The notes below the pieces were generated by a model. That model searched no databases, was not told the origin of the DNA, and worked only from the letters and a program-made list of their open reading frames with translations. From the sequence record NC_031047.1: a stretch of DNA of 64,000 bases. One strand, 5' to 3'. Below, piece by piece: positions 12,361 to 64,000 of the stretch. A program made the translations under genes and the position numbers. The stretch is from Escherichia phage HY03. The stretch's first letter is position 1; each line of letters opens with the position of its first letter.

Positions 12361-12387
12361 ATTCCCGAAACCAAACGAGGATAAGTG

Positions 12388-13938
12388 ATGATTAAGAATG
12401 AAATTAAAATTCTGAGCGATATTGAACATATCAAAAAGCGTAGCGGCATGTACATTGGCTCTTCTGCTAATGAAATGCATGAGCGCTTTCTGTTTGGTAA
12501 ATGGGAAAGTGTTCAGTATGTACCTGGTCTTGTTAAGCTTATTGATGAAATTATCGATAACTCAGTAGATGAAGGTATTCGTACTAAGTTTAAATTCGCA
12601 AATAAAATTAATGTTACTATTAAAAACAATCAAGTAACAGTTGAAGATAACGGTCGCGGTATTCCACAGGCGATGGTTAAAACACCTACCGGTGAAGAAA
12701 TTCCTGGTCCTGTTGCTGCGTGGACTATTCCAAAAGCAGGTGGTAACTTCGGTGATGATAAAGAACGCGTCACTGGCGGTATGAATGGTGTTGGTTCTAG
12801 TTTGACAAACATTTTTTCTGTGATGTTTGTCGGTGAAACTGGTGATGGTCAAAATAATATTGTAGTTCGTTGTTCAAATGGCATGGAAAATAAATCATGG
12901 GAAGATATTCCCGGAAAATGGAAAGGAACTCGTGTTACTTTCATTCCTGATTTTATGTCATTTGAAACTAATGAGTTGTCCCAAGTTTATCTTGACATTA
13001 CATTAGATCGTCTCCAGACACTTGCTGTTGTTTATCCTGATATTCAATTTACCTTTAATGGTAAAAAGGTTCAGGGCAATTTTAAGAAATATGCACGCCA
13101 ATATGATGAACATGCTATCGTTCAAGAACAAGAAAATTGTTCTATTGCGGTCGGTCGTTCACCGGATGGTTTTCGTCAATTAACATACGTCAATAACATT
13201 CACACTAAGAATGGTGGTCATCACATTGACTGTGTTATGGATGATATTTGTGAAGACCTTATTCCACAAATCAAACGTAAGTTCAAAATTGATGTAACTA
13301 AAGCACGTGTCAAAGAATGTTTGACTATCGTTATGTTTGTTCGTGATATGAAAAACATGCGATTTGATTCTCAAACTAAAGAACGACTTACTTCTCCTTT
13401 TGGTGAAATTCGTAGTCATATTCAACTTGATGCTAAAAAGATTTCACGTGCTATTTTAAATAATGAAGCAATTTTAATGCCGATTATTGAAGCTGCTTTG
13501 GCTCGTAAATTGGCGGCAGAAAAAGCAGCAGAAACTAAAGCAGCTAAAAAGGCTTCTAAAGCTAAGGTTCATAAACATATTAAAGCGAATCTTTGCGGTA
13601 AAGATGCTGACACTACTCTTTTCTTGACTGAGGGTGATTCGGCTATCGGATATCTTATTGATGTTCGTGATAAAGAACTTCACGGCGGTTATCCATTGCG
13701 TGGTAAAGTTCTTAATAGCTGGGGTATGTCATATGCTGATATGCTTAAAAACAAAGAACTATTTGATATTTGCGCAATCACTGGATTAGTTCTTGGTGAA
13801 AAAGCGTTTGAAGAAAAAGAAGACGGTGAGTGGTTTACTCTCGAACTAAATGGTGATACAATTATTGTAAATGAAAATGATGAAGTACAGATTAATGGTA
13901 AATGGATAACAGTAGGTGAATTACGAAAAAATCTATAA
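12388..13938 (+). CDS. 39: DNA topoisomerase II large subunit gp39 (N-terminal ATPase part of the split gene)
   Basis: 516 aa from ATG 12388 (SD GAGGA); GHKL ATPase motifs; ends where mobA begins. Confidence 0.95.
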   Translation: MIKNEIKILSDIEHIKKRSGMYIGSSANEMHERFLFGKWESVQYVPGLVKLIDEIIDNSVDEGIRTKFKFANKINVTIKNNQVTVEDNGRGIPQAMVKTPTGEEIPGPVAAWTIPKAGGNFGDDKERVTGGMNGVGSSLTNIFSVMFVGETGDGQNNIVVRCSNGMENKSWEDIPGKWKGTRVTFIPDFMSFETNELSQVYLDITLDRLQTLAVVYPDIQFTFNGKKVQGNFKKYARQYDEHAIVQEQENCSIAVGRSPDGFRQLTYVNNIHTKNGGHHIDCVMDDICEDLIPQIKRKFKIDVTKARVKECLTIVMFVRDMKNMRFDSQTKERLTSPFGEIRSHIQLDAKKISRAILNNEAILMPIIEAALARKLAAEKAAETKAAKKASKAKVHKHIKANLCGKDADTTLFLTEGDSAIGYLIDVRDKELHGGYPLRGKVLNSWGMSYADMLKNKELFDICAITGLVLGEKAFEEKEDGEWFTLELNGDTIIVNENDEVQINGKWITVGELRKNL

Positions 13939-14734: not shown

Positions 14735-15247
14735 TTCTTCTAGCATTGATATGAAAAAATATAAATCGCAGAACAATGTCCGTCGTTCTATTAAATCCTC
14801 TTCAATGAACTATGCGAATGTCGCTATTATGACAGACGCAGATCACGATGGATAGCCTTCGGGCTATCTATAGAAATACCTCATAATTAAGAGATTATTG
14901 GATTAGGTTCTATTTATCCTTCTCTGCTCGGATTTTTTAGTAATTGGCCAGAATTGTTTGAGCAAGGACGAATTCGTTTTGTCAAAACTCCTGTAATCAT
15001 CGCTCAGGTCGGTAAAAAACAAGAATGGTTTTATACAGTCGCTGAATATGAGAGTGCCAAAGATGCTCTACCTAAACATAGCATCCGTTATATTAAAGGA
15101 CTTGGTTCTTTGGAAAAATCTGAATATCGTGAGATGATTCAAAACCCAGTATATGATGTTGTTAAACTTCCTGAGAATTGGAAAGAGCTTTTTGAAATGC
15201 TCATGGGAGATAATGCTGACCTTCGTAAAGAATGGATGAGCCAGTAG
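14715..15247 (+). CDS. 60: DNA topoisomerase II small subunit gp60, decoded by translational bypass: join(14715..14852,14903..15247)
   Basis: Codons 1-46 end at GGA 14850..14852 followed by TAG; decoding resumes at TTA 14903 (LGSIYPSLLGFFSNWPELFEQGRIRF...), matching recalled T4 gp60. Confidence 0.93.
14850..14905 (+). other. gene 60 translational bypass element (take-off GGA, UAG, stem-loop, 50-nt coding gap, landing GGA)
   Basis: GGA-TAG at 14850..14855; hairpin GATAGCC-TTCG-GGCTATC 14851..14868; landing GGA 14900..14902. Confidence 0.93.
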
Positions 15248-21263: not shown

Positions 21264-21343
21264 TGAGCAATTTCCATAACGAACATGTGATGCAGTTCTA
21301 TCGTAACAATCTTAAAACTAAAGGCGTCTTCGGACGCCAGTGA
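21263..21343 (+). CDS. stp: Stp peptide (26 aa), activator of the host PrrC anticodon nuclease
   Basis: [26 protein letters not shown], identical to recalled T4 Stp; TAATG overlap with ndd. Confidence 0.85.
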
Positions 21344-21350
21344 GGAAAAT

Positions 21351-21506
21351 ATGAATATTGCGAAACTATTAGGAGTTATTTCATTTATTTGTTGGATAGT
21401 AGCATGTGTTTTAACTATCTGTATCGATGCTAGCAGTGTGTTTTCACAAGCTTTAGCCCAGGGTATGTGTGCATATTTAACATTTGCGTTGTTATCTAAT
21501 GATTAA
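21351..21506 (+). CDS. ac: Ac (acridine sensitivity) small membrane protein
   Basis: 51-aa hydrophobic ORF at the T4 ac position between stp and 52. Confidence 0.55.
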   Translation: MNIAKLLGVISFICWIVACVLTICIDASSVFSQALAQGMCAYLTFALLSND

Positions 21507-41364: not shown

Positions 41365-44064
<2,700 letters not shown>

Positions 44065-44630: not shown

Positions 44631-46885
44631 TTAATGTTATCAAAAGTAGTGGTGTTTCTCAGAGCTTTGACCCGCAAAAAATTATTAAAGTTTTATCTTG
44701 GGCAGCTGAAGGAACATCAGTAGATCCTTATGAATTATATGAAAATATTAAATCTTATCTCCGTGATGGAATGACAACTGATGATATTCAGACTATTGTC
44801 ATTAAGGCTGCTGCAAATTCTATTTCAGTTGAAGAGCCTGATTACCAATATGTAGCCGCTCGCTGTTTAATGTTTGCTCTTCGTAAGCATGTTTATGGGC
44901 AGTATGAACCACGTTCATTTATTGACCATATTTCTTATTGTGTAAATGCAGGTAAATATGACCCTGAATTGTTGTCAAAATATTCTGCAGAAGAAATTAC
45001 ATTTTTAGAATCAAAAATTAAGCACGAGCGGGATATGGAATTTACTTATTCCGGGGCGATGCAATTAAAAGAAAAATATCTAGTTAAAGATAAAACCACT
45101 GGTCAAATTTATGAAACTCCGCAGTTTGCATTTATGACTATTGGAATGGCACTGCATCAAGATGAACCTGTTGATAGATTAAAACATGTTATCCGTTTTT
45201 ATGAAGCAGTATCTACTCGACAGATTTCATTGCCAACTCCTATTATGGCTGGTTGTCGTACTCCTACTCGACAGTTCAGTTCATGCGTTGTTATTGAGGC
45301 AGGAGATTCGCTGAAGTCTATCAATAAGGCTTCTGCTTCAATTGTTGAATATATCTCCAAACGAGCTGGAATCGGCATTAACGTTGGTATGATTCGTGCC
45401 GAAGGTTCTAAGATTGGCATGGGTGAAGTACGCCATACTGGTGTTATTCCTTTTTGGAAACATTTTCAGACTGCTGTTAAATCATGCTCACAGGGTGGAA
45501 TTCGTGGCGGCGCTGCTACTGCTTATTATCCTATTTGGCATTTGGAAGTTGAAAATCTTCTCGTTTTGAAAAATAACAAAGGCGTAGAAGAAAACCGCAT
45601 CCGTCATATGGATTATAGTGTTCAGCTGAATGATTTGATGATGGAACGATTCGGAAAGAATGATTATATTACTTTGTTCAGTCCGCATGAAATGGGTGGC
45701 GAGCTTTATTATTCTTATTTTAAAGACCAAGACCGTTTCCGTGAATTATACGAAGCAGCAGAAAAAGACCCTAATATTCGTAAAAAGCGTATTAAAGCCC
45801 GTGAACTATTTGAATTGCTCATGACTGAACGTTCAGGGACAGCAAGGATTTATGTACAGTTCATTGATAATACGAATAACTATACTCCGTTTATTCGTGA
45901 AAAGGCACCTATTCGTCAGAGTAACTTGTGCTGTGAAATTGCTATTCCAACAAATGATGTGAATAGCCCTGATGCTGAAATTGGATTGTGTACTCTCTCT
46001 GCATTCGTACTGGATAATTTTGACTGGCAAGACCAAGATAAAATTAATGAATTGGCAGAAGTCCAAGTTCGTGCTCTTGATAATCTTTTGGATTACCAAG
46101 GATATCCAGTTCCTGAAGCAGAAAAAGCTAAAAAGCGTCGTAACCTCGGTGTAGGTGTTACCAACTATGCAGCTTGGCTGGCAAGTAACTTTGCTTCTTA
46201 TGAAGATGCTAACGATTTAACACATGAACTATTTGAGAGATTACAGTATGGACTCATTAAAGCATCCATTAAGCTCGCCAAAGAAAAAGGACCTTGCGAA
46301 TATTATTCAGACACTCGTTGGTCTCGAGGCGAATTACCTATCGACTGGTACAATAAAAAGATTGACCAAATCGCAGCTCCAAAATACGTTTGTGACTGGT
46401 CGGCGCTGCGGGAAGACCTTAAGCTCTTTGGCATCCGTAATAGCACATTATCAGCACTTATGCCATGTGAGTCATCTTCCCAAGTTTCTAACAGTACAAA
46501 TGGTATCGAGCCTCCACGTGGACCAGTCTCTGTTAAAGAATCAAAAGAGGGCTCCTTTAATCAAGTCGTGCCCAATATTGAGCATAACATAGACCTTTAC
46601 GACTATACATGGAAATTAGCTAAGAAAGGTAATAAACCTTATCTTACGCAGGTAGCTATTATGCTGAAATGGGTATGTCAATCAGCTTCAGCGAATACAT
46701 ATTATGACCCGCAGATTTTTCCAAAAGGAAAGGTTCCAATGTCTGTAATGATTGATGACCTTTTGTATTTTTGGTATTTTGGCGGAAAAAATTTCTATTA
46801 TCATAATACTCGTGATGGTTCCGGTACTGATGATTACGAAATAGAAACTCCAAAAGCCGATGATTGCGCAGCGTGTAAATTGTAA
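44621..46885 (+). CDS. nrdA: aerobic ribonucleotide reductase large subunit
   Basis: 754 aa; class Ia RNR alpha; matches recalled T4 NrdA length. Confidence 0.95.
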   Translation: MQLINVIKSSGVSQSFDPQKIIKVLSWAAEGTSVDPYELYENIKSYLRDGMTTDDIQTIVIKAAANSISVEEPDYQYVAARCLMFALRKHVYGQYEPRSFIDHISYCVNAGKYDPELLSKYSAEEITFLESKIKHERDMEFTYSGAMQLKEKYLVKDKTTGQIYETPQFAFMTIGMALHQDEPVDRLKHVIRFYEAVSTRQISLPTPIMAGCRTPTRQFSSCVVIEAGDSLKSINKASASIVEYISKRAGIGINVGMIRAEGSKIGMGEVRHTGVIPFWKHFQTAVKSCSQGGIRGGAATAYYPIWHLEVENLLVLKNNKGVEENRIRHMDYSVQLNDLMMERFGKNDYITLFSPHEMGGELYYSYFKDQDRFRELYEAAEKDPNIRKKRIKARELFELLMTERSGTARIYVQFIDNTNNYTPFIREKAPIRQSNLCCEIAIPTNDVNSPDAEIGLCTLSAFVLDNFDWQDQDKINELAEVQVRALDNLLDYQGYPVPEAEKAKKRRNLGVGVTNYAAWLASNFASYEDANDLTHELFERLQYGLIKASIKLAKEKGPCEYYSDTRWSRGELPIDWYNKKIDQIAAPKYVCDWSALREDLKLFGIRNSTLSALMPCESSSQVSNSTNGIEPPRGPVSVKESKEGSFNQVVPNIEHNIDLYDYTWKLAKKGNKPYLTQVAIMLKWVCQSASANTYYDPQIFPKGKVPMSVMIDDLLYFWYFGGKNFYYHNTRDGSGTDDYEIETPKADDCAACKL

Positions 46886-47526
46886 TGAATTATCAAAAAA
46901 TCTATAATGACCTAATTTCCCGAGCTCAGGCTCGGGAATCTTTATCAGAATATAAAGAGACACATCATATAATCCCTAGATGTATGGGAGGTTCTGATGA
47001 TAAGGAAAATTTAGTTGAATTAACAGGTAGAGAGCATTTTATAGCGCATTGGCTTTTATGTAAAATATATGACACTCCAGGATTAAAGAAAGCTTTTGGT
47101 TTAATGTGCTTGACTGGTAAAAATCGCTCATATAAAATTTCTTCTCAACTATACGAATTAGGTAGACGACGTTTGTCTGAAGCTGCTATAGGACGTGAAG
47201 TTTCTACAGAAACCAGAGAAAAGATAAGTAGAGCTCTTAAAGGAAGGAAATTTACTAAAGAGCATTTAGCTCGCATGAGAAAACCTAAAACTGAAGAAGC
47301 TAAAAAGAATATAGCTGCTGCTAAAGTCGGCGTGCTTAATCCAATGTATGGTACAATCTCTCCAACGAGAGATGTTCCTCATACTAAAGAAACTCGCGAT
47401 TTGATTTCTTTGAGAACTAAACAAGGTGCAGAGTATCCGCCGTGTCCGCATTGTGGAAAGAAAGTTAATAAAGGTAATGCTTTAAGATGGCATTATGATA
47501 AATGTAAATTTAAGGATTCTAAATGA
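46885..47526 (+). CDS. mobE: MobE free-standing HNH homing endonuclease
   Basis: 213 aa; ETHHIIPRCMGGSDDKENLV...HF HNH motif; sits between nrdA and nrdB; paralog of mobA. Confidence 0.8.
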   Translation: MNYQKIYNDLISRAQARESLSEYKETHHIIPRCMGGSDDKENLVELTGREHFIAHWLLCKIYDTPGLKKAFGLMCLTGKNRSYKISSQLYELGRRRLSEAAIGREVSTETREKISRALKGRKFTKEHLARMRKPKTEEAKKNIAAAKVGVLNPMYGTISPTRDVPHTKETRDLISLRTKQGAEYPPCPHCGKKVNKGNALRWHYDKCKFKDSK

Positions 47527-49797
47527 GTACAGTTTTTAATACATCACCTGTTAATATTTTGACTGAGCCGATGTTTTTTGGTTCTGGATTGGGTTTAGCT
47601 CGATATGATATTCAACGGCATCGAGTATTTGAAGAACTTATTGAGAAGTCTTTGTCATTTTTCTGGCGTCCTGAAGAAGTAAACTTGATGATGGATGCTG
47701 CACAATTTAACAAGCTTCCTCAGTATCAGCAGAATATTTTTACTAACAACTTGAAGTATCAATCACTTCTAGATAGCATTCAGGGTCGTGCACCGTCTGC
47801 TGTACTTATGTCATTAATTTCAGACCCAAGTCTTGATACATGGGTTGCTACATGGACTTTTAGTGAAACTATTCACAGTCGTTCATATACTCATATCATG
47901 CGAAATCTTTATACTGATCCATCGAAGGTATTTGATGAGATTGTACTAGATGAAGCTATCATGAAACGTGCTGAATCTATCGGTCGCTATTATGATGATG
48001 TTCTGACTAAAACCCGTGAATGGGAAAATGCTAAAGAATTTACAGAACTAGCTAAAGAATCTCCTGATGCTGTTTTTCGTTTAAATCGAGCTATTAAACA
48101 AGAAGCCGAAGCTAAACGAGCACTAATGAAATCTCTTTACCTTTGCCTTCATGTAATCAATGCATTGGAAGCTATTCGTTTTTATGTATCTTTCGCGTAA
48201 AATGCGCCTTTAAGCAGTAATGCTTATCGAAAACTCCTTTAATTGCTGGAAAATCCAGAAATGGAAAACTAGCAGCCAAGGTTTTGCTTGCACCTTTAAT
48301 TAGTATAATATTATAAATATGATGATTATACTTTTAAGAGGATGCACAATTGAATTATAGAAAAATTTGGATAGATGCTAACGGACCGATACCTAAAGAT
48401 TCTGATGGAAGAACGTATGAAATCCATCATAAAGATGGTAACCGTGAAAATAATGATTTAGATAATTTGATGTGTCTTTCTATACAGGAACATTATGATA
48501 TACATTTAGCTCAAAAAGATTACCAGGCATGTCACGCTATAAAGCTTAGAATGAAATATTCTCCTGAAGAAATTTCTGAATTAGCTTCTAAAGCTGCAAA
48601 ATCTAGAGAAATCCAGGTTTTTAATATCCCTGAAGTGAGAGCTAAAAATATTGCCTCTATTAAATCTAAGATAGAAAACGGTACATTTCATCTTTTAAGT
48701 GGTGAAATACAACGTAAATCTAATTTAAATCGGGTTGCATTAGGTATACATAATTTTCAACAAGCTGAGCATATTACAAAAGTTAAAGAACGTAATATTG
48801 CAGCTATAAAAGAAGGTACTCATGCATTTTGCGGTGGTAAAATGCAGTCAGAAACTCAGTCAAAACGAGTAAATGACGGTTCACATCATTTCTTATCAGA
48901 AGACCATAAGAAAAGAACATCAGCAAAAACATTAGAAATGGTTAAGAACGGGACCCATCCTGCACAAAAAGAAATCACATGTGATTTCTGTGGTCACACT
49001 GGTAAAGGTCCTGGATTTTATCTAAAACATAATGACAGATGTAAATTAAATCCAAATAGAATTCAATTGAATTGTCCATATTGTGATAAGAAAGATTTAT
49101 CACCATCAACATATAAACGATGGCACGGCGACAATTGCAAAACAAGGTTCAACGACTAGTCTTCGGACGTAGGGTCAAGCGACTCGAAATGGGGAGAATC
49201 CCTCCGGGATTGTGATATAGTCTGGACTGCATGGTAACATGCAGCAGTTCATAAGAGAACGGGTTGAGAATTAGCGAGCTCAATCGAACATACGGTACCT
49301 TTAACTTCCATAAGAACATGGAAATCATGGAAGGTAATGCCAAGATTATGAAGTTCATTGCACGTGATGAGCAGCTTCACCTTAAAGGCACCCAATATAT
49401 TATTCGTCAACTTCAATCCGGTACTGATGGCGATGAATGGGTTAAAATTGCTCAAGAGTGTGAACAAGAAGCAGTTGATATTTTCATGGAAGTTAACCGC
49501 CAAGAAAAAGATTGGGCAGTTCATTTATTTAAAGATGGTGATGTTCCTGGATTAAATACAAATAGCATGTGGAGCTTTATTGATTACTTAACTGTATCTC
49601 GTATGAAACAGTGCGGTCTTCCATGCCCAATTACCGATGCTCCGGTTAAACATCCATATCCTTGGATTCGTGAATACCTTAATTCTGATAATGTTCAATC
49701 CGCGCCACAAGAAGTAGAACTGTCATCTTACCTTGTTGCACAGATTGATAATGATGTTGATGATAAAGTTATGATGAGTTTTAAAAAATACTTTTAA
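47523..49797 (+). CDS. nrdB: aerobic ribonucleotide reductase small subunit, intron-interrupted: join(47523..48198,49295..49797)
   Basis: Junction deduced from the conserved R2 motif (...RFYVSFA-C-TFNFHKNMEIMEGNAK...); exon 1 ends at U 48198, intron ends at G 49294. Confidence 0.8.
48312..48319 (+). promoter_or_regulatory. late promoter TATAAATA inside the nrdB intron, upstream of I-TevIII
   Basis: Exact TATAAATA about 30 nt upstream of the ORF start. Confidence 0.65.
48350..49159 (+). CDS. I-TevIII: I-TevIII HNH homing endonuclease, full length (intron-encoded)
   Basis: 269 aa; EIHHKDGNRENNDLDNLMCLSIQEHYDIH HNH motif; C-terminal CxxC...CxxC zinc-finger pairs; apparent TTG start after SD GAGGA. 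Confidence 0.8.
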   Translation: MNYRKIWIDANGPIPKDSDGRTYEIHHKDGNRENNDLDNLMCLSIQEHYDIHLAQKDYQACHAIKLRMKYSPEEISELASKAAKSREIQVFNIPEVRAKNIASIKSKIENGTFHLLSGEIQRKSNLNRVALGIHNFQQAEHITKVKERNIAAIKEGTHAFCGGKMQSETQSKRVNDGSHHFLSEDHKKRTSAKTLEMVKNGTHPAQKEITCDFCGHTGKGPGFYLKHNDRCKLNPNRIQLNCPYCDKKDLSPSTYKRWHGDNCKTRFND

Positions 49798-51415: not shown

Positions 51416-51445
51416 GTTTACAAGTCCCTCGTGTTGTGTTATAGT
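51416..51445 (+). promoter_or_regulatory. T4-type early promoter upstream of alc
   Basis: GTTTAC 51416..51421, TATAGT 51440..51445. Confidence 0.6.
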
Positions 51446-51476
51446 AGACTTACTGACATAACATGAGGACTTTATG

Positions 51477-60575: not shown

Positions 60576-60841
60576 TGTTTGTTGTTCATACTATTTATGA
60601 AAATGAAGGTAATACTACACGTGATTACGGTCACGTAAATCAATTTTTTAGATGCAATCCAGAATTCCGAGCTCAAAAAGACGAACGAATTTTTAAAAAA
60701 TGTGTAGAGCAAGGTTTCATTTACGTCAAGCACTGGATGCAAGGAAATAAAGTTAGAACCACGTACCACAGGTCTTTGACTGAGCTTAATGATGAATTGA
60801 TTTATAATAGAGCTGTAAACCAAACTCTGAAGGATGAATAA
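60575..60841 (+). CDS. hypothetical protein (30.1 position)
   Basis: 88-aa ORF, TAATG overlap. Confidence 0.5.
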   Translation: MFVVHTIYENEGNTTRDYGHVNQFFRCNPEFRAQKDERIFKKCVEQGFIYVKHWMQGNKVRTTYHRSLTELNDELIYNRAVNQTLKDE

Positions 60842-62304
60842 TGATTCTTAAAATTCTGAACGAAATAGCATCTATTGGTTCAACTAAGCAGAAGCAAGCA
60901 ATTCTTGAAAAGAATAAAGATAATGAATTGCTTAAACGAGTATATCGTCTGACTTATTCTCGTGGGCTGCAGTATTATATCAAGAAATGGCCTAAACCTG
61001 GTATTGCTACCCAGAGTTTTGGAATGTTGACTCTTACCGATATGCTTGACTTCATTGAATTCACATTAGCTACTCGGAAATTGACTGGAAATGCAGCAAT
61101 TGAGGAATTAACTGGATATATCACCGATGGTAAAAAAGATGATGTTGAAGTTTTGCGTCGAGTGATGATGCGAGACCTTGAATGTGGTGCTTCAGTATCT
61201 ATTGCAAACAAAGTTTGGCCAGGTTTAATTCCTGAACAACCTCAAATGCTTGCAAGTTCTTATGATGAAAAAGGCATTAATAAGAATATCAAATTTCCAG
61301 CCTTTGCCCAGTTAAAAGCTGATGGGGCTCGGTGCTTTGCCGAAGTCAGAGGTGATGAATTAGATGATGTTCGTCTTTTATCACGAGCCGGTAATGAATA
61401 TCTAGGATTAGATCTTCTTAAGGAAGAATTAATCAAAATGACCGCTGAAGCCCGCCAGATTCATCCAGAAGGCGTGTTAATTGATGGCGAATTGGTATAC
61501 CATGAGCAAGTTAAAAAGGAGCCAGAAGGCCTAGATTTTCTTTTTGATGCTTATCCTGAAATTAGTAAAGCCAAAGAATTCGCCGAAGTAGCTGAATCAC
61601 GTACTACTTCTAATGGAATCGCTAATAAATCTTTAAAGGGAACCATTTCTGAAAAAGAAGCTCAATGCATGAAGTTTCAGGTCTGGGATTATGTTCCGTT
61701 GGTAGAAATATACGGTCTTCCGGCGTTTCGTTTAAAATATGATGTACGTTTTTCTAAACTAGAACAAATGACATCAGGATATGATAAAGTAATTTTAATT
61801 GAAAACCAGGTAGTAAATAACCTAGACGAAGCCAAGGTAATTTATAAAAAGTATATTGACCAAGGTCTTGAAGGTATTATTCTCAAAAATACCGATGGAT
61901 TGTGGGAAAATGCTCGTTCAAAAAATCTCTATAAATTTAAAGAAGTAATTGATGTTGATTTAAAAATTGTAGGAATTTATCCTCACCGTAAAGACCCTAC
62001 TAAAGCGGGTGGATTTATTCTTGAATCAGAGTGTGGAAAAATTAAAGTCAATGCTGGTTCAGGTTTAAAAGATAAAGCTGGTGTAAAATCGCATGAACTT
62101 GACCGTACTCGCATTATGGAAAACCAAAATTATTATATTGGAAAAATTCTAGAGTGCGAATGCAACGGTTGGTTAAAATCTGATGGCCGCACTGATTACG
62201 TTAAATTATTTCTTCCGATTGCGATTCGTTTACGTGAAGATAAAACTAAAGCTAATACATTTGAGGATGTATTTGGTGATTTTCATGAGGTAACTGGTCT
62301 ATGA
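60841..62304 (+). CDS. 30: ATP-dependent DNA ligase
   Basis: 487 aa; adenylation motif KADGAR; matches recalled T4 DNA ligase. Confidence 0.95.
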   Translation: MILKILNEIASIGSTKQKQAILEKNKDNELLKRVYRLTYSRGLQYYIKKWPKPGIATQSFGMLTLTDMLDFIEFTLATRKLTGNAAIEELTGYITDGKKDDVEVLRRVMMRDLECGASVSIANKVWPGLIPEQPQMLASSYDEKGINKNIKFPAFAQLKADGARCFAEVRGDELDDVRLLSRAGNEYLGLDLLKEELIKMTAEARQIHPEGVLIDGELVYHEQVKKEPEGLDFLFDAYPEISKAKEFAEVAESRTTSNGIANKSLKGTISEKEAQCMKFQVWDYVPLVEIYGLPAFRLKYDVRFSKLEQMTSGYDKVILIENQVVNNLDEAKVIYKKYIDQGLEGIILKNTDGLWENARSKNLYKFKEVIDVDLKIVGIYPHRKDPTKAGGFILESECGKIKVNAGSGLKDKAGVKSHELDRTRIMENQNYYIGKILECECNGWLKSDGRTDYVKLFLPIAIRLREDKTKANTFEDVFGDFHEVTGL

Positions 62305-62489
62305 AAGCTTACTTAGAAACAATTGTTGTAGCTCAAAAAGAAGGTGGAGATGTTTCTACTTCTGTATCACAAGTCATTCTCGAATTTGTAGATGCATACG
62401 CTTATAATAAATTTACAGAAACATTTGATGCCTATGAAAAAGGGCCAAAGTTTGAAATATATCGTACTCTCTTACCATTAGATTATTAA
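62301..62489 (+). CDS. hypothetical small protein
   Basis: 62-aa ORF. Confidence 0.45.
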   Translation: MKAYLETIVVAQKEGGDVSTSVSQVILEFVDAYAYNKFTETFDAYEKGPKFEIYRTLLPLDY

Positions 62490-62505
62490 AGGCCTTCGGG
62501 CCTTT
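62488..62505 (+). other. C(UUCG)G stable RNA hairpin, same sequence as 12318..12335
   Basis: AAAGGCC-TTCG-GGCCTTT. Confidence 0.6.
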
Positions 62506-62509
62506 AATT

Positions 62510-62517
62510 TATAAATA
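62510..62517 (+). promoter_or_regulatory. late promoter TATAAATA upstream of alt
   Basis: Exact TATAAATA about 20 nt upstream of the alt ATG. Confidence 0.6.
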
Positions 62518-62537: not shown

Positions 62538-63995
62538 ATGATGGAACTAATTACAGAATTATTTGACGAAGATACTACTCTTCCAATTACAAACTTAAAT
62601 CCAAAGAAGAAAATACCGCAAATTTTTTCAGTTCATGTTGATGATGCAATTGAACAACCAGGCTTTCGTTTATGTACCTATACATCTGGAGGTGATACTA
62701 ATCGTGATTTAAAGATGGGCGATAAAATGATGCATATTGTTCCTTTTACATTAACCGCTAAAGGTTCAATTGCTAAATTGAAAGGTCTTGGTCCAAGCCC
62801 AATTAATTATATCAATTCGGTTTTTACTGTTGCAATGCAAACGATGCGTCAGTATAAAATTGATGCTTGTATGCTTCGTATTCTTAAGTCTAAAACCGCT
62901 GGTCAAGCTCGACAAATTCAAGTTATTGCTGATAGACTTATCCGTAGTCGTTCAGGTGGCAGATACGTCCTTCTTAAGGAACTCTGGGATTATGATAAAA
63001 AGTATGCATATATTCTTATACATCGCAAAAATGTATCACTAGAAGACATTCCAGGAGTTCCGGAAATTAGTACCGAGCTCTTTACTAAGGTTGAATCGAA
63101 GGTCGGTGATGTTTATATCAATAAAGATACTGGAGCTCAAGTAACTAAAAACGAGGCAATTGCAGCATCTATTGCGCAAGAAAACGATAAACGTTCTGAC
63201 CAAGCTGTAATCGTTAAAGTTAAAATTTCCCGTAGAGCAATTGCACAAAGTCAGTCATTGGAATCTTCTAGATTTGAAAGTGAATTATTCCAAAAGTATG
63301 AATCTACTGCAGCTAATTTCAATAAACCTGCTACCGCTCCTTTAATTCCCGAAGCGGAAGAAATGAAACTTGGAATTAATTCAATAGCTTCTAAAACTAA
63401 GGCAGCAAAAATTATTGCTGAAGGAACTGCAGATGAACTTCATTATGACTATAAATTCTTTCCAATGAGTGAGGTTGGTGAAGTTTCTGAAAAAATTAAA
63501 GATGTAATTCTTAATGCGATTAAAAATGAACCAACTACTTCAATAAAATGTTTAGAGAAATACGCAGCAGCTGTTAATCAATTCTTTGAAGAATATAAAG
63601 ATAATTGGCTTGATAAACATAATAAAACCCGTAAAGGACAGCCAGATGATGTCTGGGAAGAAATAACTAAAAATTCTTGGAACGCAGCAAAAACTAAATT
63701 CCTCAAAAGAATGATTTATAGTTTTTCTGGAATTGGTGCAGGTCCAATGATTGATATTACTATTGCCCGTGATGGTTCTAAATATACTCCATCGCAAAAG
63801 CGCGGCATTAGAGAGTATTGTGGATCAGGATATACTGACATCAATAATCTTCTTTTAGGCCGCTACAATCCAGAACGATATGATGTAATGAGTGAAAAAG
63901 AAATTGAATCTGCGATAAATAATTTAGATTCAGCTTTTGAAAATGGTGACCGTATACCAGAAGGCATTACAGTTTATCGTGCTCAAAGTAAGTGA
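62538..63995 (+). CDS. alt: Alt ADP-ribosyltransferase, N-terminal 485 codons; ORF closes at TGA 63993..63995
   Basis: MMELITELFDEDTTLPITNLNPKK...; reading frame ends ...PEGITVYRAQSK-TGA; T4 Alt is recalled as about 680 aa. Confidence 0.75.
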   Translation: MMELITELFDEDTTLPITNLNPKKKIPQIFSVHVDDAIEQPGFRLCTYTSGGDTNRDLKMGDKMMHIVPFTLTAKGSIAKLKGLGPSPINYINSVFTVAMQTMRQYKIDACMLRILKSKTAGQARQIQVIADRLIRSRSGGRYVLLKELWDYDKKYAYILIHRKNVSLEDIPGVPEISTELFTKVESKVGDVYINKDTGAQVTKNEAIAASIAQENDKRSDQAVIVKVKISRRAIAQSQSLESSRFESELFQKYESTAANFNKPATAPLIPEAEEMKLGINSIASKTKAAKIIAEGTADELHYDYKFFPMSEVGEVSEKIKDVILNAIKNEPTTSIKCLEKYAAAVNQFFEEYKDNWLDKHNKTRKGQPDDVWEEITKNSWNAAKTKFLKRMIYSFSGIGAGPMIDITIARDGSKYTPSQKRGIREYCGSGYTDINNLLLGRYNPERYDVMSEKEIESAINNLDSAFENGDRIPEGITVYRAQSK

Positions 63996-64000
63996 GGAAA

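Follow-up and report, generated by a model that had tools for sequence, protein, structure and literature searches.

Early closure of the alt reading frame at an apparent junction with unrelated DNA in a T4-like phage segment

Introduction

The closest described precedents for an interrupted enzyme gene in a T4-like phage are of three kinds. The first is gene splitting by a homing-endonuclease cassette: in T4, mobA and the gene 60 bypass reportedly separate the topoisomerase genes 39 and 60 in this way, and in Aeromonas phage Aeh1 mobE is said to split nrdA. The second is the group I introns of the T-even phages, which lie in td, nrdB and nrdD; to our knowledge no intron has been reported in alt. 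The gene alt is dispensable in T4 and null alleles of it are tolerated. The third is natural decay within the alt family itself, as seen in the alt.-1, alt.-2 and alt.-3 remnants of T4, SG1 and JEP6 and in the fragmented alt of Shigella phage sb3.

The product of alt is an ADP-ribosyltransferase (ART) of the R-S-E class. It is injected together with the phage DNA and, within seconds of infection, ADP-ribosylates numerous host proteins, among them RNA polymerase alpha, EF-Tu and MazF (PMC8120803).

Here we describe an alt gene that stops early at the right-hand end of a 64,000-nucleotide stretch of phage DNA; the whole of this stretch is referred to below as the window. A sequence-only reading had recognised the ORF as alt, closed by a TGA at the start of the presumed catalytic region, and had offered a nonsense or frameshift allele, a sequence error or opal readthrough as explanations.

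Results

A truncated alt ORF at the conserved alt locus

The window is a mosaic Tequatrovirus (T4-like) segment, and JEP6, ELT1, SG1, RB3 and a51, the public genomes nearest to it, show approximately 96-97.5% identity. At its right end, DNA ligase gene 30 (60841..62304) is succeeded by a 62-aa 'phage blade' ORF (62301..62489) and then by alt, the same order as is found in relatives. The features discussed are listed in Table 1. When read from its first ATG, at 62538 and in frame with the start annotated in relatives, the alt ORF occupies 62538..63995 and encodes 485 aa, the last of which (EGITVYRAQSK) are followed directly by TGA. Its product shares 99.8% protein identity with Alt of Salmonella phage SG1 (697 aa) across residues 1-483. 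Full-length Alt proteins of relatives measure 682-697 aa, in line with the length of about 680 aa given for T4 Alt in the sequence-only reading, and those inspected run for some 200 codons past the stop site. The ORF reading, the match to SG1 and the continuation of the gene in relatives together confirm that this is alt and that it has been cut short at the TGA. A class of Alt proteins of about 485 aa was not represented in the best 120 matches of a protein homology search.

Table 1. Features at the right end of the window. Coordinates are window positions; a dot marks a feature without a strand.
Feature	Coordinates	Strand	Basis or remark
GC-rich hairpin AAAGGCC-TTCG-GGCCTTT, then T run	62488..62506	+	immediately 5' of alt; direct reading of sequence
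TATAAATA late-promoter motif	62510..62517	+	21 nt 5' of alt start; direct reading of sequence
Truncated alt ORF	62541..63995	+	484 aa if counted from the ATG that relatives annotate; homologous over its first 483 residues to 697-aa Alt
ADP-ribosyltransferase domain PF03496 (ADPrib_exo_Tox), N-terminal 41%	63672..63989	+	Pfam; Alt residues 378-483, profile positions 2-81 of 196
CGT codon, Arg480, catalytic Arg of R-S-E motif (..TVYRAQ..)	63978..63980	+	alignment to CdtA/iota toxin
Breakpoint	63990..63991	.	63990 is the last base common to all relatives; 63991 is the first unrelated base
TGA closing the alt frame	63993..63995	+	within unrelated DNA; five bases short of the window end (64000)
TGAGGAAA, stop plus Shine-Dalgarno-like octamer of T4 gene-junction type	63993..64000	+	octamer survey of window

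The hairpin upstream of alt has the appearance of a terminator or stem-loop separating alt from the 62-aa ORF. It is followed by TATAAATA, the T4 late-promoter consensus (-10 element), whose position ahead of alt fits Alt as a late, virion-packaged protein. The ORF has both the conserved genome position of an Alt-type enzyme, after gene 30/30.x and behind a late promoter, and the Alt N-terminal region.

The catalytic domain is cut after its arginine

The ORF matched the PF03496 profile with partial coverage (E = 3.9e-20), whilst in intact SG1 Alt the same domain extends over residues 378-627 (profile positions 2-195). It had been suggested that the catalytic domain would lie downstream of the stop. 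This holds for the S-T-S and E-x-E motifs, but the domain itself begins at residue 378 and is cut after 41% of the profile. The YR dipeptide close to the stop had been proposed as the catalytic-Arg motif by comparison with paralogues including ModB, which does read LYRGISKSTEE in the window. A search of solved structures bears this out, since the TVYRAQ of Alt aligns with TVYRRS of Clostridioides difficile CdtA and iota toxin; in the same search ATEAEV of Alt aligned with AGEYEV, the ExE motif of these toxins. An alignment of the 697-aa, 685-aa (alt.-2) and 682-aa (T4-type) paralogues shows conservation of YR-x-Q, FVSTSL and E-x-EVILPRG, and Arg480 is invariant in all Alt paralogues aligned.

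The two remaining motifs are missing from the truncated ORF. FVSTSL corresponds to residues 507-512 of relatives, past the stop, and the EAE within their ATEAEVILPRG also lies past it. In a tblastn search the 3' portion of alt had no match elsewhere in the window, from which its EAE motif is likewise absent. Judged from its sequence, the visible ORF is an Alt homologue by descent and an incomplete ART, in which the Arg is kept and both S-T-S and E-x-E are gone.

The homology ends abruptly ten bases before the window end

A megablast search with alt returned 511 records, of which 317 cover at least 80% of the query, from approximately 500 Tequatrovirus genomes. The best 40 of the 511 align only as far as query position 1451-1453 (window 63988-63990). 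The alignment to SG1 shows 9 differences over 1450 nt, none of them in the last 634 nt, and then 8 mismatches in the final 10 nt. At this point relatives have CAAAGTA/TGACTGCTCC, as against CAAAGTA/AGTGAGGAAA in the window, where the slash marks the breakpoint; in longer context these are ...GTTTATCGTGCTCAAAGTA/TGACTGCTCCTATATAC... (..VYRAQSMTAPIYEA..) and ...GTTTATCGTGCTCAAAGTA/AGTGAGGAAA respectively. A read spanning the junction would contain CAAAGTAAGTGAGGAAA, whilst CAAAGTATGACTGC and ...CAAAGTATGACTGCTCC... represent the sequence without the junction, that is, an intact alt. The terminal AGTGAGGAAA is unrelated to TGACTGCTCC in any register, and no indel of 1-2 nt rescues the alignment. 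These comparisons indicate that the early stop is a structural junction to different DNA and not a point change.

In intact alt the breakpoint falls inside the Met486 codon (AGT A/TG ACT). The site lies in the most conserved DNA of alt; 161 of 308 records are at least 99% identical over the last 60 nt.

A deletion that brought the ten bases up from further downstream was also considered. Allowing up to 2 mismatches, the terminal 10-mer is not present in the 3' half of alt, and in 9 relatives no convincing site for it turned up within the 8-10 kb that follow alt, on which grounds a local deletion was rejected. A longer-range deletion would take out essential baseplate genes.

The terminal bases resemble a T4 gene junction

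The window contains nine other copies of TGAGGAAA, all of them + strand. In eight an ATG or GTG comes 2-5 nt later and opens an ORF of 30 aa or more, and in the ninth an ATG lies at 6 nt, so that a start codon succeeds the octamer at 9/9 copies compared with a background of 6.7%. The full 10-mer is also found in the window at 21339, where it precedes an ORF starting at 21351, and JEP6 has 5 exact copies of it outside the window region, each with an ATG 1-6 nt after. Because TGAGGAAA precedes a start codon at every other copy in the window, a new gene is predicted near 64003-64009, and it is probable that a different gene starts there, just beyond the window. The joined DNA brings with it a stop for the upstream piece as well as a putative translation start region (AAG TGA GGAAA, 63990..64000).

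The visible part of the partner amounts to 10 nt, and the combination of a stop with a ribosome binding site (RBS) is so common that ten bases cannot name it. A donor search of IMG/VR with GTAAGTGAGGAAA(N2-7)ATG gave at least 120 matches, mostly unrelated. One T4-like lineage in IMG/VR has 16 nt in common with the junction (AAAGTAAGTGAGGAAA), located ahead of an ORF of 228 aa close to the lysozyme gene. This match was judged to be compatible with chance, since as an early-gene RBS the 10-mer is common and has five further exact sites in JEP6. We know of no common Illumina, Nextera, MGI, PacBio, ONT or transposon end that matches the 10 nt.

The junction in other genomes

Junction 22-24-mers were found in none of IMG/VR, the JGI metagenomes or the GTDB genomes, and megablast with the last 70-100 nt did not find the junction in phages (50,697 records), E. 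coli genomes or plasmids. Neither the 484-aa nor the 485-aa product has an exact match in the protein sequence index. Patterns designed for other partners at the site (left flank followed by non-T, or non-A followed by right flank) gave a single unrelated chance match (L010). The seven contigs with an identical ligase all have an intact alt, and none exceeds 98.7% identity to the window.

The site itself is intact almost everywhere, and the early stop is no accident of a variable gene. The 201 residues across it are uninterrupted in 1190 of 1195 phage records, and 20 IMG/VR loci, ranging from 34 to 100% identity, encode it without interruption; no insertion at this alt site was found among these relatives. 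A closer inspection of exceptions among the phage records revealed a cut record (ESh24, whose linear record ends 13 nt past this very point), a weak partial match (Sf20) and an evident misassembly in alt with 77-nt tandem duplications (BYEP02). A literature search for alt interrupted by endonucleases gave nothing relevant.

Discussion

Origin of the junction

We consider it somewhat more probable than otherwise that the window ends on a real junction with a gene cassette, whether by insertion or by replacement, which has left a catalytically dead and possibly still packaged Alt fragment. The ancestor would have been an SG1-like Tequatrovirus with a full-length 697-aa alt, in which alt became joined to unrelated DNA after codon 484, four codons past Arg480. 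The joined DNA would open with a stop overlapping a T4-type RBS, with another gene starting 3-9 nt past the window. Two routes can be envisaged: a gene cassette may have been inserted into alt, or another cassette may have replaced the 3' part of alt, perhaps together with the variable alt.-2/alt.-3 region. The fragment would in either case keep its N-terminus, including the MELITE/L-type prohead-protease/capsid-targeting end.

A real junction is ranked above an artefact because a perfect stop plus RBS motif would very seldom result from a chance chimera or an adapter. The rest of the window also has the look of a clean assembly, with long intact ORFs that include those of 1289 aa and 1109 aa, nrdA and the ligase. 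Moreover, the same window holds three cassette-type gene interruptions, namely a td intron with an I-TevI-like ORF, an nrdB intron with an HNH ORF, and a mobA-like ORF with a 50-nt bypass between genes 39 and 60. The second alt paralogue is reduced to remnants of 67-92 aa in SG1, JEP6 and T4-type phages and is a 685-aa gene in RB3; the alt region decays naturally in this lineage, which supports a real junction.

Several observations count against a real junction: 10 nt of the partner are all that is seen, the junction is unique, no relative has an insertion, and a breakpoint 10 nt from the window end is also what would be expected of a record-end, concatenation or wrap-around artefact.

Such an artefact of assembly or data handling is possible, though we consider it the less probable account. 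The window would then end at, wrap around or concatenate across a contig or record end. Its final 10 nt would stem from elsewhere in the phage genome or from a chimeric read, and the phage itself would carry a normal, full-length alt. In its favour are the closeness of the breakpoint to the window end, the failure to find the junction or the truncated protein in any collection searched and the lack of structural variants at this site in relatives. The N-terminal 1450 nt also show no decay, as expected of an intact gene. Phage records can indeed end inside alt, as does that of ESh24, and misassembly occurs in alt, as in BYEP02. However, the 10 nt are not adapter-like and form a perfect T4 stop plus RBS motif, which occurs at approximately 6 sites per ~170-kb genome, so that the probability of obtaining it by a random chimeric join or junk is of the order of 1e-4. 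The window start, moreover, is an ordinary mid-gene cut without junk, and the other long ORFs of the window are intact. One specific version, a circular wrap of the window, was rejected, as the sequence preceding the window start in a relative differs from the 10-mer.

A special case of a real junction is the entry of a mobile element into the DNA encoding the catalytic site, the element being a group I intron or a free-standing homing-endonuclease gene. The 3' part of alt would then follow the element and function would be restored through splicing or a two-piece enzyme. We regard this as unlikely, and an intron as less likely than an endonuclease cassette. In favour of such an element, the site is in the most conserved DNA of alt and 4 codons after the catalytic Arg, and the phage has several endonuclease genes. 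The break at the Met486 codon means that a downstream piece could start at its native ATG. Further, if the shared A is counted with the insert, T is the last base of the upstream part, in the manner of the 5' splice sites of td (GGGT/TAATTGAGG) and nrdB (GCGT/AAAATG), and an in-frame stop comes right after the junction, as it does in td and nrdB of the same window. Against this, the RBS occupies +5 to +11, where the td and nrdB introns have their P1/guide region. When the exon is read as ending in T at 63989, nothing in the 10 visible nt is complementary to the exon end CAAAGU, although a guide could lie further on. Nor is there an element at this site in approximately 1200 phage records or 20 IMG/VR loci, and therefore no known donor. 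A Rfam gathering scan missed the evident td and nrdB introns of the window, and its negatives carry no weight.

The simpler origins offered by the sequence-only reading fare much worse. A point nonsense mutation, small frameshift or base-calling error in an otherwise collinear alt is highly improbable. The frame does close with a TGA, and the dispensability of alt would make a null allele tolerable, but any such change would leave the flanking bases alignable, and the last 10 nt are not. After 634 nt of identity to SG1, 2 of 10 bases match beyond 63990 and indels of 1-2 nt give no alignment; even where a 2-nt insertion makes the TGA match, it is followed by GGAAA in place of CTGCT. Programmed opal readthrough or recoding that carries Alt past the TGA, for which there is only the TGA itself and the presence of a recoding element (the gene 60 bypass) elsewhere in the phage, can be dismissed almost entirely, because it would need alt codons after the TGA, and the bases found there are not alt-like, form an RBS motif and correspond to a region that is plain ORF in relatives.

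Consequences for the phage

If, as we infer, the junction exists in the phage rather than in its assembly, the late-promoter motif and the preserved Alt N-terminus would have the fragment made late, and the 484-aa product would probably be packaged. Without S-T-S and E-x-E the fragment alone should be unable to ADP-ribosylate. A phage of this kind would be expected to be viable, given that Alt is dispensable in T4 and that ModA and ModB are encoded in the window. It would represent a natural catalytic null in which the packaging part is kept, usable for studying the role of the large N-terminal region and how far the paralogues (alt.-2, ModA and ModB) compensate.

Were the partner a mobile element, the few split genes of T-even phages would be joined by a new target site, in a gene for a late virion protein, and alt would be the first ADP-ribosyltransferase gene of a T-even phage to be split or to contain an intron. 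The element would then separate the catalytic Arg, on its upstream side, from S-T-S/E-x-E, on its downstream side, with activity perhaps arising via splicing or through assembly of two polypeptides in the capsid or host. Should the junction instead be an artefact, the practical lesson is to refrain from interpreting features that lie a few bases from the end of a window or contig.

Comparison with known systems

Unless it is an artefact, the alt feature is a new instance of a known event in which a cassette junction disrupts a phage gene that is dispensable. Its nearest counterparts are T4 Alt and the Alt-like enzymes of Tequatrovirus (the 697-aa form of SG1 and RB3 and the 682-aa T4 type), with which it has in common the locus, the late-promoter motif, the N-terminus and the context of the catalytic Arg. 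It differs from intact Alt in lacking residues 486-697, which hold S-T-S, E-x-E and the C-terminal tail, and in continuing into unrelated DNA from 63991.

The likeness to homing-endonuclease gene splitting lies in a conserved enzyme gene being cut at a conserved site, where the joined DNA brings a stop and an RBS, and the 39/mobA/60 arrangement of T4 is present in this window too. In contrast to those cases, neither an endonuclease ORF nor a downstream piece of alt is seen past the break, of which 10 nt are visible, and no other phage surveyed has an element at the alt site. The T-even group I introns offer a second parallel, as the upstream part of alt can be read as ending in U, an in-frame stop lies within two codons and the break is in catalytic-motif DNA; unlike them, the 10 nt hold no guide for CAAAGU and have an RBS-like motif in the place of P1. 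Finally, genes of the alt family in this region are often truncated or fragmented, and in this respect the ORF resembles the products of natural alt paralogue decay. Those, however, arose by deletion or frameshift of the second paralogue or by collinear frameshifts, whereas here it is the first, otherwise perfectly conserved copy that is joined to foreign DNA.

Irregular alt records in related phages

Shigella phage ESh24 (ON528734.1; loci L132 and L133 are its two record ends) is deposited as a linear 'UNVERIFIED' record that is cut within alt, 13 nt downstream of the breakpoint in the alt ORF of the window. The record finishes with ...CAAAGTATGACTGCTCCTAT and begins with ATACGAAGCA, and these two ends join as contiguous normal alt sequence. 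Among ~500 records, the chance of a cut falling as near to the breakpoint as that of ESh24 is ~0.1.

The alt gene of Escherichia phage BYEP02 (OR757454.1; locus L157, 1501..2400) contains two 77-nt tandem duplications, which disrupt its frame. These duplications are most likely an artefact of assembly at k=77. In Shigella phage sb3 (PQ666541.1; locus L003), alt is annotated in two fragments, one of 300 aa and another of 204 aa. The latter is called from the Met486 ATG, the same codon in which the window breakpoint lies. This fragmented alt looks like a collinear frameshifted allele rather than a junction.

Repeats and microhomology

The junction in the window (63986..63993) reads CA-AAGT-AAGT-GAGGAAA and thus contains a tandem AAGT repeat. 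One ribosome-binding site in the relative JEP6 is TTTCAAAGTGAGGAAATATG, and CAAAGT is common to this site and alt. It is conceivable that the alt junction arose through a microhomology-mediated join with a 4-nt duplication.

Elsewhere in the window, rnlA (gene 63) is separated from alc by DNA that includes a 54-nt element, which is 100% identical to a stretch of phage RB3 that directly follows the second alt paralogue, alt.-2 (L002, 7158..7211). The element is a dispersed intergenic repeat, and possibly a substrate for recombination at cassette borders.

Introns and endonuclease cassettes

Both td (42188..43605) and nrdB (47523..49797) are split by a group I intron-like insert with an endonuclease ORF. 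The 5′ junctions are GGGT|TAATTGAGGCC for td and GCGT|AAAATGCGCC for nrdB. When the entire window was scanned against Rfam at gathering thresholds, no match was obtained despite these inserts; the scan is therefore blind to the ORF-bearing introns of td and nrdB.

Coordinates of intron-associated, endonuclease and repeat features in the window
Feature	Position	Length
gene 39 ORF	12385..13938	
mobA-like HNH endonuclease ORF, after gene 39 ORF	13916..14734	
gene 60-type translational bypass element (GGATAG...GGA), after mobA-like ORF	14850..14902	50 nt
td exon 1	42188..42739	
I-TevI-like GIY-YIG ORF in td insert	42868..43605	
HNH + NUMOD3 ORF between nrdA and nrdB	46885..47526	213 aa
nrdB exon 1	47523..48200	
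HNH_3 ORF in nrdB insert	48350..49159	269 aa
nrdB exon 2 ORF	49264..49797	
rnlA/alc intergenic element	51416..51469	54 nt

The HNH + NUMOD3 ORF is a mobE-like free-standing homing endonuclease. Between 12385 and 14902, gene 39 is succeeded by the mobA-like HNH ORF and then by the gene 60-type bypass. From this order it follows that the T4 mobA/hop cassette occurs in the present, non-T4 isolate.
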